Positions 1,104 through 13,754 of a stretch of 16,650 bases of DNA are shown here, piece after piece. How positions within the stretch are numbered: position 1 is the stretch's first letter; every line of letters begins with the position of its first letter. This DNA is from a virus, in the UHGV virus genome UHGV-0207574; one strand, 5' to 3'. A model generated the notes under the pieces. The model was not told where the DNA came from and searched no databases. It saw nothing but the letters and a program-made list of their open reading frames with translations. The translations under genes and the position numbers were made by a program.

Positions 1104-1119
1104 ATGGTGTCCCCTGCAG
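1104..1119. repeat. att-right core (direct repeat of the argW 3' end)
   Basis: ATGGTGTCCCCTGCAG is identical to 13679-13694; flanking sequence diverges immediately on both sides. Confidence 0.8.
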
Positions 1120-1176: not shown

Positions 1177-1198
1177 TATTTTACCCGCTATTTTACCC
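1177..1198 (+). repeat. Two direct copies of TATTTTACCC (1177-1186, 1189-1198) next to att-right and the torI 3' end; candidate recombination-protein binding sites
   Basis: Seen directly. The same octamer (as GGGTAAAA / TTTTACCC) recurs three times beside the integrase start at the other prophage end (13519-13563). Confidence 0.4.
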
Positions 1199-1393
1199 AT
1201 TGGCGCGGCTTAAGAGCTTATTTTTGAATTCACAATGGTCACGATATAACCATCTTGCTCGCCCGTGGATAACTTTGGCTTTTGGTAGGTCGCCGGACTT
1301 AATCCGGTCGTAGATGAAGGTTTTACCAAAGCCAGTATCGGCCATGATGAATTTCAAATCAACCAGTGAATCAGGCTGTAGTTCGTGTTGCAT
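1193..1393 (-). CDS. torI: Excisionase / recombination directionality factor TorI (also described as an inhibitor of the Tor response regulator)
   Basis: 66-aa ORF MQHELQPDSLVDLKFIMADTGFGKTFIYDRIKSGDLPKAKVIHGRARWLYRDHCEFKNKLLSRANG, a winged-helix Xis/AlpA-like small protein. Matches my recollection of KplE1 TorI. Sits next to att-right. Confidence 0.85.
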   Translation of the reverse strand: MQHELQPDSLVDLKFIMADTGFGKTFIYDRIKSGDLPKAKVIHGRARWLYRDHCEFKNKLLSRANG

Positions 1394-1412
1394 GAGTGCT
1401 ATCTCCGAATAT

Positions 1413-1428
1413 GGAATCGAACCTGCAA
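1413..1428. other. Internal 16-bp fragment identical to the argW variable-loop/T-arm region
   Basis: GGAATCGAACCTGCAA at 1413-1428 is identical to 13694-13709 inside the argW gene. It lies ~20 bp upstream of the torI start codon and ~300 bp inside the prophage. Confidence 0.5.
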
Positions 1429-1517
1429 ATCAGGCAATAAAAAGCCGCATTGATGCAGCAATGGTAGGTCTGGATATCTTGAGAAATGAACAGGCCTCAT
1501 CGAGTGTGAGACTGTGG

Positions 1518-1872: not shown

Positions 1873-1898
1873 CAATAAAAAACCGCCATCAGGCGGCT
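1873..1898 (-). terminator. Putative intrinsic terminator on the minus strand (GCCGCC-TGAT-GGCGG followed by TTTTTTATT)
   Basis: Minus-strand sequence CAAGCCGCCTGATGGCGGTTTTTTATTGGAG: a short GC stem, 4-nt loop and T-tract, immediately upstream of the RBS of the 1518..1862 ORF. An A-tract on the other side means it could act in both directions. Confidence 0.4.
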
Positions 1899-1962
1899 TG
1901 GTGTTCTTTCAGTTCTTCAATTCGAATATTGGTTACATTGTTTTCATATATGAATAAATAAA

Positions 1963-2238: not shown

Positions 2239-3066
2239 TCAAAGTGGAGGCTCTGGTAGCGGCATCCAGTGAGTTACGTCATCCAAGATATTTCCTGATA
2301 AATACGTGAAAGCTCTATATTTTTTGTAATCAATTGGATTTACAACCCAGTTCCAATATGCTGCCACGATTTCACCTTGACTAAATGCCAGTAACATTTT
2401 GGTGTCTTCCGGCATTCTCTCACTACAGCTTATCCAACCATCTGGAATTACCGGAGAGTTGCCAGATGGCTCGTTCAACTTGTAAGTTTGGCTTACAGGT
2501 TCGGCACCATGAAGCATGGCGTCGCTCCGCTCTATGCCATCCAGCGCGATTCGCAGTGCCTGAATTGTGGTAGAGCTATCGTTTGGGGCTATTCCATATC
2601 GCTCGAATACAGCTAAATGGTTGCGCATAATCTCAGGCGTAAGCTCTTTGTAAGCATAAGCAAGAGGCTCTGATGCATTATCCGGCACAACCGACGCAGG
2701 CGCGGCAGCATAAACAGGAATAACGTCCGCTTCACGAACCTGCATTGCATAGGCAACGATGTTTGCTGCGCTTGGCGTGTTCTTTGCGATCTCAGCGATA
2801 TAAGCAAAACCGCCAACAGACGCCGTTAACGATTTACGCTCCAGTTCATCGAAAAGCGTCAGGCCATCTACTGGCTTTTGCTCCCGGTGCATTCTGGTTA
2901 TTTCTTCGAAAAGGATTTTGTGTGGCCGGCTGTAAAATGAGTCAGGCTTCAGCATCGCCAGAACTTTCTGGACGCGCTCACTGCTGTCATCATCCAGAAG
3001 CAATCCACCAATCACCGCCTGCTCTGCCTCGATGCTATGGGGCGGCGCATAAAAATTATCGGTCAT
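2239..3066 (-). CDS. Chimeric replication-module protein: DnaB-helicase N-terminal domain fused to an Ead/Ea22-like region and a DUF551-like C-terminus; no helicase ATPase core
   Basis: The ATG at 3066 gives MTDNFYAPPHSIEAEQAVIGGLLLDDD ... LTASVGGFAYIAEIAKNTPSAANIVAYAMQVREA, which closely resembles the primase-interacting N-terminal domain of DnaB (PHSIEAEQ and SVGGFAY..KNTPSAANI motifs). The C-terminus (WISCSERMPEDT ... VTHWMPLPEPPL) resembles DUF551. Start overlaps the stop of the upstream O-like gene by 11 nt. Confidence 0.7.
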   Translation of the reverse strand: MTDNFYAPPHSIEAEQAVIGGLLLDDDSSERVQKVLAMLKPDSFYSRPHKILFEEITRMHREQKPVDGLTLFDELERKSLTASVGGFAYIAEIAKNTPSAANIVAYAMQVREADVIPVYAAAPASVVPDNASEPLAYAYKELTPEIMRNHLAVFERYGIAPNDSSTTIQALRIALDGIERSDAMLHGAEPVSQTYKLNEPSGNSPVIPDGWISCSERMPEDTKMLLAFSQGEIVAAYWNWVVNPIDYKKYRAFTYLSGNILDDVTHWMPLPEPPL

Positions 3067-3946
3067 CGTGTTCACCCTCACGAACTTTCAGGTAGGTATT
3101 GTCGTTAAGCAGGAAATCAAATCCCTTTTTGTGCCAGACGGTTCCGCGTTGATGGTTTGGGCGTTCTTCGAACATCCATCGGCAATTTTCGCCTACGTAG
3201 ATCAAATAATTTCTCCAGTCCTGCATCGTGAACCCATGCCCGTCAAGCTGGCGGGTTATCACTCCGGCTTTGCGCCAGAACGTTCGGATCTGGTTTTTAC
3301 GCTTGTCATTCAGTGCGCGGATTCTTGGCGCTTCAGGAAGGATTTCGTGGTAAGCATCGACAACATCCTGACAGCTGACGGAAGGTTTTTTCTTGTCAGA
3401 CTTTTTGTCTGCTGTGGCACTCTCTAATACGTCAGTATTAGAGATATTATTTATATTATTGTTTATGGACAACCGTTGGACAACCGTTGGACAATCTCCG
3501 CTGAGAGCCGCGCCATTACTGGTGTTTGCGTTGGACAACCGTTGGACAACCGTTGGACAATTTTTTGCCTGAAAATCGTCATATTTAACGATTGTAAACA
3601 GGCTAAATTTCTTCCCCATCGAGCAAATATTAAGCATCCCTTTCGACTCAAAAGTCCGTAATAAGCTCCGAACTTTGTTGTCGGGGATGAATGTTTCTCT
3701 GACCAGCGACGGGCGTCCAGTTATCATCTGACCGCGATCAACAGTTATCGGACCGATATCCGTATTGACGACAGTAGATTCGTGATTAGCCTTGAGGATT
3801 AAGTGAAGCCAAAGATGTACTGCCTGAGAGTCCTTATAGAGCCTGCTGTCCATAAACTGGCGGTGTATAGAGACATACCCCATACTGGATGCCTCCTGAT
3901 GTTGTACAGGGTTATGCCTGTAATCAGCTAACTTAACGACGCCCAT
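3056..3946 (-). CDS. Replication initiator, lambda O-like, with the origin iterons inside the gene
   Basis: 296-aa ORF with an N-terminal region resembling the phage O origin-binding domain (HLWLHLILKANHES...). A central linker is encoded by tandem 11-bp repeats, giving the duplicated peptide CPTVVQRLSN. Translationally coupled to the downstream gene. Confidence 0.7.
   Translation of the reverse strand: MGVVKLADYRHNPVQHQEASSMGYVSIHRQFMDSRLYKDSQAVHLWLHLILKANHESTVVNTDIGPITVDRGQMITGRPSLVRETFIPDNKVRSLLRTFESKGMLNICSMGKKFSLFTIVKYDDFQAKNCPTVVQRLSNANTSNGAALSGDCPTVVQRLSINNNINNISNTDVLESATADKKSDKKKPSVSCQDVVDAYHEILPEAPRIRALNDKRKNQIRTFWRKAGVITRQLDGHGFTMQDWRNYLIYVGENCRWMFEERPNHQRGTVWHKKGFDFLLNDNTYLKVREGEHDDR
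3465..3560. repeat. Putative replication origin: six iterons (unit TTGGACAACCG) in two clusters of three (3465-3496, 3531-3560)
   Basis: Direct tandem repeats seen in the sequence, lying inside the O-like gene as lambda ori lies inside O. Next to them in the gene's direction is an AT-rich tract (3440-3464) and a perfect 9-bp inverted repeat CTCTAATAC-GTCA-GTATTAGAG (3422-3443). Confidence 0.7.
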
Positions 3947-12360: not shown

Positions 12361-13518
12361 TCACTCCACCTTCTCATCAAGCCAGTCCGCCCACCATTGC
12401 ATCATTTCTCTGCGTTTATCGAGATACTGAGCATGGTTGTAAATCCCACGCACAGATCCGCCGTTTGCATGTGCCAGTTGCACTTCAATAGCGTCAGCAG
12501 GCCATTCGTGCTCGTTCATAATCGTGCTGAATTCATGCCTGAATCCGTGACCGCTTTCCAGACCCTCATAGCCGATTTGTTTGATCACAAGCAGTACCGC
12601 GTTCTCGCAGATTGGCTTCTTCTTATCGTTGCGCCCGGCAAAAACAAACTCTGAGACTGGTTTGGTGATGGAGCTTAGCGTAGTGAGAAGTTCAACTACC
12701 TGGTCTGACATAGGAACCACATGAATTTTGCGTCCTTTCATCACACTGGCGTCGATGGTGATAATCCTATTTTCAAAATCGACGTTCTTCCATAGCATGG
12801 AACGAAGCTCTTTCGTTCTTAGGGCTGTGTAGCGTAAAACTTTGGTCGCAATGAGCGATACGATACTTCCTGAAAATGTTGCCAGTGCTTTGTTGAATGC
12901 CGGGATCTGGTCTGCAGGAAGAAACGGGAAGTTCTTCTTGCGGTATCCCTTCATGGCGTCAGCAAGGTCAGGTGCCGGGTTATATTTAGCCCTTCCGGTG
13001 ACAATAGCGTAACGGAAAACCTCGCCGCATCTTCTGCGTGCTTTGTTGGCTCGTTCCATTGCACCGCGATCTTCAAACCTGCGGATTACTTCCAGCAGTT
13101 GCATCGGCTCAATATCCTGAATTTCAAGGCCGCCAATGATAGGTAAAATGTCGTCGTCAAACATTTTGGCAAGTTCAGTTGCATACCCTACTGACCATAC
13201 TTGCTTCTTGTGCTCGTACCATTCCTTGTAAATCGCACTAAAGGAATTGTTGTTAGACGAAGCCTTTTTCGCCTTTACAGGATCGATGCCAACCGAGATG
13301 TCTTTCCTCGCAGTCCATGCTTTATCCCTTGCCTCCTGCAAAGTCATAAGCGGATATTTTCCGACGGTCAGGATTTTCTCCTTACCGTCAATCTTGTAGC
13401 GAAGCTGCCATACCTTTTTCCCTGACACAGGGACATAAAGGTACAGGCCATTACCATCGAGAAGGCGGTATGGTTTTTCTTTCGGCTTTGCTGCTTCAAT
13501 CTGCTTAACGGTGAGCAT
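12361..13518 (-). CDS. intS: Tyrosine-family site-specific integrase (IntS-like)
   Basis: From the ATG at 13518 (MLTVKQIEAAKPKEKPYRLLDGNGLYLYV...) the protein has a P4-type integrase N-terminus and a C-terminal catalytic domain (...HGFRHEFSTIMNEH...GIYNHAQYL). The ORF track starts at an upstream GTG at 13554. Adjacent to the tRNA. Confidence 0.85.
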   Translation of the reverse strand: MLTVKQIEAAKPKEKPYRLLDGNGLYLYVPVSGKKVWQLRYKIDGKEKILTVGKYPLMTLQEARDKAWTARKDISVGIDPVKAKKASSNNNSFSAIYKEWYEHKKQVWSVGYATELAKMFDDDILPIIGGLEIQDIEPMQLLEVIRRFEDRGAMERANKARRRCGEVFRYAIVTGRAKYNPAPDLADAMKGYRKKNFPFLPADQIPAFNKALATFSGSIVSLIATKVLRYTALRTKELRSMLWKNVDFENRIITIDASVMKGRKIHVVPMSDQVVELLTTLSSITKPVSEFVFAGRNDKKKPICENAVLLVIKQIGYEGLESGHGFRHEFSTIMNEHEWPADAIEVQLAHANGGSVRGIYNHAQYLDKRREMMQWWADWLDEKVE

Positions 13519-13563
13519 GGGTAAAAATCCGGTGGGTAAAATTATTTTATCCACTTTTTACCC
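13519..13563. repeat. Octamer repeats GGGTAAAA (13519-13526, 13534-13541) and inverted TTTTTACCC (13555-13563) at the integrase 5' end; candidate arm-type or RDF binding sites
   Basis: Seen directly. The same motif occurs twice next to att-right (1177-1198). Confidence 0.4.
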
Positions 13564-13678
13564 GTCATGGAGTGCGGCTGTCAACGATCTGAAGCGAACC
13601 ATGACGAACTGTAAATCTACGGAATGCTTGATATTCAGGGGATTTTGCGGACTGGTACGGATGGGAGCGAACTGATAA

Positions 13679-13694
13679 ATGGTGTCCCCTGCAG
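13679..13694. repeat. att-left core overlapping the 3' end of argW
   Basis: ATGGTGTCCCCTGCAG, identical to 1104-1119. Confidence 0.8.
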
Positions 13695-13754
13695 GAATCG
13701 AACCTGCAATTAGCCCTTAGGAGGGGCTCGTTATATCCATTTAACTAAGAGGAC
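13680..13754 (-). tRNA. argW: tRNA-Arg (anticodon CCU)
   Basis: Minus-strand 75-nt sequence GTCCTCTTAGTTAAATGGATATAACGAGCCCCTCCTAAGGGCTAATTGCAGGTTCGATTCCTGCAGGGGACACCA. It has the acceptor stem, an anticodon loop CU-CCU-AA, a GGTTCGATTCC T-arm and an encoded CCA end. Confidence 0.9.

Follow-up and report, generated by a model that had tools for sequence, protein, structure and literature searches.

The 16-mer TTGCAGGTTCGATTCC in the leader of the excisionase gene torI is strictly conserved in this leader among a family of phages that integrate at argW, and is probably a regulatory site; a second attachment site it is not. We hold with good confidence that it is a selected cis element of the torI leader and not a relic of an attachment site. 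The window, i.e. the whole stretch of 16,650 nt analysed here, is an argW region of the E. coli K-12 type and carries in order dsdC, attR, the KplE1/CPS-53 prophage remnant, attL-argW and yfdC, the gene beyond argW being of the formate/nitrite-transporter family. The relevant features are as follows.

68-1009: dsdC, LysR family
1082-1216: 135-bp attR fragment sufficient for excisive recombination in vitro (primers of PMC3509656 mapped on the window)
1104-1119, minus strand: att core, attR copy, the 16-bp CTGCAGGGGACACCAT, which is the real crossover segment
1179-1198: GGGTAAAA repeats, within the 135-bp attR fragment and just downstream of torI
1193-1393, minus strand: torI, encoding a 66-aa recombination directionality factor (excisionase)
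1403-1406, minus strand: Shine-Dalgarno (SD) sequence GGAG of torI, conserved across lineages
1407-1412, minus strand: spacer ATATTC (6 nt) from the box to the SD, its length kept in most lineages, its sequence not
1413-1423, minus strand: T-loop box GGTTCGATTCC (11 bp), the 11 bp of attB directly left of TGCAGG
1413-1428, minus strand: 16-mer TTGCAGGTTCGATTCC in the torI leader, an exact copy of a segment of the argW T-arm
1415-1422, minus strand: 8-mer GTTCGATT inside the T-loop box, invariant in 13 lineages and Hafnia
1444-1459, minus strand: intrinsic-terminator hairpin GCTGCATCAATGCGGC, then TTTTTATTGCCTGA, the end of the early-left module
12361-13554, minus strand: intS, heterobivalent tyrosine integrase with Arm-DNA-bind_3, Phage_int_M and Phage_integrase domains
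13584-13674, minus strand: the five published TorI sites of attL, CAGTTCGC, CAGTCCGC, CAGTTCGT, TGGTTCGC and CAGATCGT (PMC2951348), conserved in six phages and taken as reference in testing the box as a TorI site
13679-13694: att core, attL copy, inside the 3' end of argW
13680-13754, minus strand: argW, tRNA-Arg(CCT), located by ARAGORN
13694-13709, minus strand: the other copy of the 16-mer, here true T-arm sequence within argW

On its plus strand the window has two exact copies of the repeat GGAATCGAACCTGCAA, one at 1413-1428 and the other at 13694-13709, and no further copy with up to two mismatches. Two matches were reached in none of 200 dinucleotide shuffles, and the estimated chance expectation is about 0.03 for any exact 16-mer pair in 16.6 kb and about 6e-4 for a match to the 75-nt tRNA; slightly shorter matches do arise by chance, three exact 14-mer pairs being found in the window. 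The second copy is identified as T-arm from the placement of argW by ARAGORN: it begins with TT of the variable loop, runs through the 5' T-stem and the T-loop, and closes with CC, the two opening bases of the 3' T-stem. It adjoins the att core in the tRNA with a 1-nt overlap. The leader copy is separated from the attR core by 293 bp, with torI in between, and ends 6 nt upstream of the torI SD and 19 nt upstream of the ATG, the terminator hairpin (1444-1459) lying just upstream of it. An earlier reading of this DNA, made from the sequence only, had described an exact repeat too long to be expected by chance, next to the core in the intact tRNA and about 300 bp inward of the right attachment site on the far side of torI; all of this is borne out.

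The sequence-only reading had also considered that the 16-mer might be common in unrelated contexts as the T-arm of some other tRNA pseudogene, of which the first half holds and the second does not. The 120 matches to the 16-mer in IMG/VR comprise 33 torI leaders, 14 argW-type tRNAs and 74 T-arms of other tRNAs, and since it is a common T-arm of many unrelated tRNAs, an origin from argW is plausible and not proven. No tRNA other than argW was detected in the window by ARAGORN, nor any tRNA match at positions 1000-2000 by Rfam (E <= 10). A tRNA pseudogene was rejected, as neither a cloverleaf nor remains beyond one arm were found and tRNA likeness stops with the 16 nt. Local and ungapped alignment of 17 leaders to TGCAGGGGACACCA with shuffle controls (p = 0.2-1.0) also led us to reject the idea that the box is followed by an old core or by the degenerate remainder of a full tRNA 3' end.

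The 16-mer is not specific to K-12 and travels with the recombination module in free phages. Positions 1104-1443 of the window match HK620, Sf6, IME10, HK633, Kapi1, N7 and others at 96-98% identity, and the order in their attP is box - torI - core - int. The same bases have been mislabelled before, in CUS-3, HK620 and Sf6. The GenBank record of CUS-3 (CP000711) has TTGCAGGTTCGATTCC at the same two places (L002:2693-2708 and L003:1-16), annotated as 'attL core' and 'attR core', and ends there. The 16-mer is thus treated as the crossover site in CUS-3, whereas in E. coli S88 a prophage end identical to that of CUS-3 is followed by torI (L006:2029-2229, RefSeq annotation) and then by dsdC. Because of this, and because the left end of CUS-3 runs into an HK620-type core and int, the CUS-3 att sites are best taken as mis-assigned; the deposited genome is therefore about 300 bp short, without the excisionase and the true attR. 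In the GenBank record of HK620, a promoter labelled 'phage integration' and a cII protein_bind feature lie over these bases, and in that of Sf6 they are part of a predicted pI promoter and also of 'boundary sequence bsq2'.

The repeat that lies flush with both prophage junctions is not the 16-mer, it is CTGCAGGGGACACCAT, the published KplE1 core (PMC2951348), confirmed in Kapi1 by comparison of a lysogen with a non-lysogen (PMC8787464). The leader 16-mer is not the crossover site, and it is not needed for excision in vitro: 135 bp of attR are enough (PMC3509656), and the primers map to 1082-1216, short of 1413-1428, a result that combines the literature with primer mapping and concerns excision only. 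Whether the fragment is contiguous with the core in any relative was a check suggested by the sequence-only reading, and this was never the case among about 230 loci. The idea of an older, longer att site split by torI is rejected for this reason, and also because a T-loop-like sequence already stands in the attP arm next to the core and because the leader boxes of Serratia and Pantoea continue into CCTG, so that they overlap the core sequence (its CTG) rather than adjoin it. For example, the attP arm by the core in Serratia has its own T-loop-like sequence, AGTTCGATGTATGCAGG versus GGTTCGATTCCTGCAGG in the tRNA; in most genera the arm left of the core TGCAGG reads (A/G)TTCGATGT(A/C), and that of E. 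coli, AAGTAGATGTC, is the most diverged version. Partial tRNA copies arising as att duplications are said to have been described, by Reiter in 1989 and Williams in 2002, at the ends of prophages and islands integrated in tRNA genes. The 16-mer resembles such duplications in being an exact partial copy of the target tRNA, in gene orientation, within a prophage at that tRNA; it differs from them in lying off the junction, with 293 bp of phage DNA including torI outside it, and in being carried within the attP of free phages and selected across genera. As a separate observation, the 17 bp left of TGCAGGGG in attR or attP of five other loci (L016, L017, L019, L007 and L008) are a diverged copy of the tRNA T-loop, hence the tRNA homology of attP continues imperfectly past the 16-bp core.

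Homologues of torI were gathered from GTDB genomes, IMG/VR and a protein collection, the search reaching relatives of at least 59% identity, all of them Enterobacterales. The 8-mer GTTCGATT is identical in 13/13 lineages of the conservation set, which were chosen for having the box, are mutually related and share less than 93% nucleotide identity in torI (mean 79%); it is preceded by CAG and followed by [C/T]CC, and Hafnia is a 14th lineage with it. The consensus of the T-loop box is (c)AGGTTCGATT(C/T)CC. It is found in Escherichia, a Citrobacter-type lineage, Serratia, Pantoea, Edwardsiella, P. stewartii, Erwinia phages and Hafnia, the 14 box-bearing lineages spanning about eight enterobacterial genera. 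In the 13 lineages, four-fold degenerate third positions are 56% pairwise identical (44% diverged) and leader columns flanking the box 25-50% identical. GTTCG stands 28-29 nt away from the ATG in 10 of them (range 26-35), and the spacer from the box to the SD is mostly 6 nt long and not conserved in sequence. At 129 loci encoding the exact TorI protein, a few leader variants dominate, each with an intact box; single-base variants of the box are rare among E. coli prophages. Measured against this divergence, the central 8-11 nt of the box are shown to be under purifying selection. The box is missing from related modules in Klebsiella phages, Erwinia Eho49, Dryocola, Tatumella, Rouxiella, Cronobacter and the Pantoea MELRED group, which retain TorI sites and core, and it is missing from Rahnella too; the absence from several related modules indicates that it is accessory.

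Some lineages harbor the box in duplicate. In Erwinia phage Midgardsormr38 (L007:2100-2160) a tandem duplication of the form CAGGTTCGATTCCCGT CAGGTTCGATTCCC lies upstream of xis, and tandem boxes are also present in L130, L131, L133 and L127, with a period of 18 nt in the Erwinia lineages and 14 nt in L127; one tandem copy has drifted to GTTCGGTT in L133. Two other loci stand apart by their taxonomic label: short contigs in metagenome-assembled genomes labelled Actinomycetes (L015) and Parachlamydiaceae (L030) carry an enterobacterial-type torI module with the box (TorI 85-92% identity), most likely through bin contamination. In a Hafnia chromosome (L364:1501-3134), xis, a core-like ATGCAGGGGACACCAT and a full integrase gene lie within 1.7 kb, a layout that looks like attP or tandem elements at the tRNA-Arg site.

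The edges of the box bear on its origin. Those retained differ among lineages, E. coli having TTGCAGG... and Serratia and Pantoea ...CCTG, and jointly spell 18 nt of tRNA (TTGCAGGTTCGATTCCTG), from which we infer that the box descends from a real tRNA T-arm. Its flanks do not track the tRNA of the host, the Edwardsiella-type tRNA-Arg having TTGCAGG...CCTGCA versus TGACAGG...CCCTGT in the Edwardsiella leader, which argues for selection on the centre and against fresh copying of the tRNA. Continual copying of the box from the host tRNA was rejected on the same difference between box flanks and host T-stem. Among the origins that the sequence-only reading had offered, the one in agreement with these results is reuse of a tRNA-derived element in the torI leader, given the fixed position in the xis leader, the occurrence in free phages and many genera, and the invariant centre. 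A relic of an earlier or tandem integration, also on offer, found no positive support: past the box the leader bears no likeness to what would follow in the tRNA, and a relic without function should have drifted.

A possible function, and tentatively our preferred one, is that the box is a copy of an attB half-site that would act as an operator for IntS on torI. The box is an element of the xis-attP-int module of KplE1/HK620/Sf6-type phages, which integrate in tRNA-Arg(CCU), and sits in the torI/xis leader downstream of the early-left terminator, usually ending 6 nt before the SD. As a putative B-type core half-site (the 11 bp adjoining the TGCAGG spacer in attB), it would allow IntS to sense and limit torI expression, and IntS might bridge it to the GGGTAAAA arm sites just downstream of torI; in an alternative role, the box may tune attP assembly for integration. 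Several observations point this way. GGTTCGATTCC at 1413-1423 is identical to 13694-13704, left of TGCAGG, and the conserved extent of the box coincides with this left arm of attB. By our own alignment, the two arms of attB (GGTTCGATTCC-TGCAGG-GGACACCATCC), the box being the left one, form an imperfect inverted repeat (7/11), and this repeat with GGACACCATCC, together with the T-loop-like attP arms, suggests that the 11 bp are a half-site of IntS. The invariant positions of the box include tRNA positions 57, 59 and 60, variable among tRNAs and fixed in this attB, which points to a factor recognising this particular T-loop; IntS would be the only known factor here to do so, and it has both arm-binding and core-binding domains. 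The tandem boxes of the Erwinia and L127 lineages also count in its favour, since operators are often duplicated.

Other observations speak against an IntS operator. Excision in vitro works with the box-less 135-bp attR, and both TorI sites and core persist in related modules that have no box. Binding of a tyrosine integrase to a lone core-type half-site is usually weak, as with lambda Int. The C arm of attP drifts (AAGTAGATGTC in E. coli), so it is not obvious that IntS binding alone would impose strict invariance; a role at the RNA level would suit the constant distance of 6 nt to the SD at least equally, and single-base variants of the box do occur occasionally among E. coli prophages. Compared with the B and C core-type half-sites of lambda Int and its like, the box has in common that it equals the 11 bp on the tRNA side of attB, the attP arm being a diverged copy, and differs in standing alone about 290 bp from the core, without overlap region or partner half-site. 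To our knowledge, it is not established that an integrase can regulate expression through a lone core half-site. A wider formulation, that an attB mimic in the excisionase leader, read as DNA or RNA by the integrase or another T-loop-specific factor, sets the Xis:Int ratio, strikes us as doubtful. Were it true, the decision between integration and excision would be coupled to the very recognition surface that selects the chromosomal target, and it would represent a new mode of control of a recombination directionality factor, with a tRNA fragment exapted as regulatory site.

The other explanations that we weighed give the box a role in the torI mRNA, in binding of TorI, in a promoter, or no role. 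It is unlikely that the box acts by controlling torI translation. In this reading, the 3' part of the box in the mRNA, (A)UU(U)CC, would pair with the SD GGAG(AU), and GGUU with AACC/ACU before the AUG, so that the ribosome site is occluded, with a T-arm-like hairpin (CAGG...CCUG) as the open alternative or a T-loop mimic bound by a host factor as a variant. UUCC:GGAG pairing is present in the MFE structures of 11/14 lineages, often with GGUU:AACC outside it, and SD pairing combined over lineages tends above shuffles, yet it exceeds composition-matched shuffles at <=0.05 in 4/16 leaders, the null mean being already 0.6-0.8. Longer loops go with longer stems (6 bp in Serratia and 5 bp in Pantoea, by our own reading of the leader sequences), and the MFE structure of Serratia instead forms the CAGG:CCUG hairpin; a complete ACAGG...CCTGT hairpin occurs in Edwardsiella and P. 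stewartii and is kept in L118 despite loop changes, but conservation does not extend to the T-arm stem in general, of which E. coli and type B have only 2 bp. Folding z-scores are -2.9 for type B and -1.9 for L019, against -0.9 to +0.1 for most leaders, and RNAalifold gave no consensus structure of the leaders. A spacer constant in length and not in sequence is in line with an RNA reading; the invariant and mostly unpaired GUUCGA is not explained by SD pairing. tRNA-mimic operators are known in mRNA leaders, the thrS operator of E. coli mimicking the anticodon arm of tRNA-Thr. The box is likewise a tRNA-arm-like sequence directly upstream of an SD, but differs in having no conserved stem or known partner, with structure predictions that are not significant. 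The presence of GTTCG (1418-1422, minus strand) in the box led us to test it as a sixth TorI site, where TorI would bind in its own leader and autoregulate, as it represses PintS via I3-I5; this is very unlikely. Sites I1-I5 are inactivated by replacing GTTCG/GATCG/GTCCG with CAAGC (Panis et al. 2010, PMC2951348). The box has CAGGTTCG, the L128/L129 variant CAGTTCGA matches site I1 CAGTTCGC at 7/8 positions by our own count, and six phages have conserved TorI sites of the type nnGTTCGC in their P' arms. Like I1-I5 of KplE1 attL, the box has GTTCG after CAG/TGG, in the same module and beside the start of a recombination gene. However, it does not fit the (C/T)AGTTCG(C/T) context, the base after the pentamer being C or T at every genuine site and A in every box. 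With a position weight matrix built from 30 genuine sites of six phages (13-nt context), genuine sites score 8.6-15.1 bits, with one outlier at 2.8, and the K-12 box -1.7, a score equalled or exceeded by 878 13-mers of the window, so that the box is by its sequence a poor TorI site. Genuine sites also form cooperative arrays at 10 or 20 bp spacing, whereas the box occurs singly or as a duplication with a spacing of 14 or 18 bp, and since TorI tolerates variants of the pentamer, its binding would not explain 8-11 invariant bases.

A part in a cII/C1-dependent pI promoter for int, with TTGCCTGATTTGC as the activator site and the box as spacer and -10, is what the promoter and cII protein_bind features of HK620 and the pI feature of Sf6 imply over these bases, and is the least probable of the roles considered. 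HK022 and lambda have a true pI box, TTGCGTGTAATTGC, at the equivalent place before xis, and the region here resembles both lambda/HK022 pI and the HK620/Sf6 'pI'/bsq2 (Clark 2001; Casjens 2004) in its position between the early-left terminator and the xis SD, and the former also in that the second TTGC of its cII box lines up with the TTGC at the 5' end of the 16-mer. The TTGC repeats are, however, spaced by N5 instead of the N6 of the HK022 cII box; -35/-10 hexamers joined to TTGC-N6-TTGC are not present, a sigma-70 scan of positions 1150-1950 gave no promoter-like site and no -10 was found, and the repeats, not conserved outside E. coli, are missing in most other genera, where the box is invariant. 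Moreover, a promoter upstream of xis would make Xis along with Int, the wrong output for integration. It is also quite improbable that the box is an inert scar without present function, left by an earlier or tandem integration, by an att site split by torI or by module shuffling. Such an origin would suit its position exactly at the boundary of the int/xis and early-left modules: homology to HK022/434/Stx phages spans the genes upstream of the torI leader and ends at about 1431, which makes the box the outermost element of the int/xis module, at a mosaic boundary. Integration hot spots commonly contain tRNA fragments as debris, the module functions without the box in several genera, and box-less leaders look about 25 nt shorter, that of Dryocola (TTATTGCCTG then GAGG) reading as though this length were missing. 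A scar is nevertheless hard to reconcile with an 8-mer invariant in 14 lineages when four-fold sites are 44% diverged and the flanking leader is unalignable, with a position fixed relative to SD and ATG, and with the presence of the box in free, functional phages; there is also no remainder of the tRNA beside it, and the core-adjacent attP arm already holds a T-loop homologue.

A selected element at this place touches the least understood part of the KplE1/HK620 recombination module, namely how torI/xis is silenced in the lysogen and dosed after infection. The regulation of intS has been worked out in detail, and control of torI in the accessible literature amounts to upstream transcription termination only. 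A conserved 11-bp element 6 nt from the torI SD offers a concrete site to mutate. Its invariance across genera and its identity with the attB arm are not described in the accessible literature, where a text search for the motif in connection with integrase gave no relevant match. Public annotation is also affected, the CUS-3 att sites being corrected and the 'pI promoter' of HK620 and Sf6 put in doubt. In addition, identity with a tRNA does not by itself make a short repeat close to a prophage end the att site, which matters for tools that delimit prophages by repeats of tRNA fragments.

Some further features of the module and the window were noted. In HK022 (L001:2481-2530), the cII box TTGCGTGTAATTGC lies directly before the xis SD, where KplE1 has TTGCCTGATTTGC and an 18-nt box segment, and TTGC, with which the 16-mer begins, may have its homologue in the second cII repeat and not in tRNA. 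A linker made of a GC hairpin and then TTTTTTATTG(CCTG)/GGAG is repeated before different genes (window 1880-1899 and 1444-1459); it precedes a 123-aa ORF and torI in K-12, and xis directly in the box-less L018, L182, L183 and L186. This recurrence agrees with the proposal of 'boundary sequences' in mosaic lambdoid phages. Finally, copies of an 11-bp unit, TGGACAACCGT, form two tandem clusters 44 bp apart at 3466-3572, inside a 296-aa ORF without Pfam match (3056-3946, minus strand), and look like replication-origin iterons in a lambdoid O-type initiator gene. The ORF at 2239-3081 combines a DnaB N-terminal domain with a C-terminal DUF551 and looks like what the defective prophage retains of a replicative helicase, in truncated or fused form.
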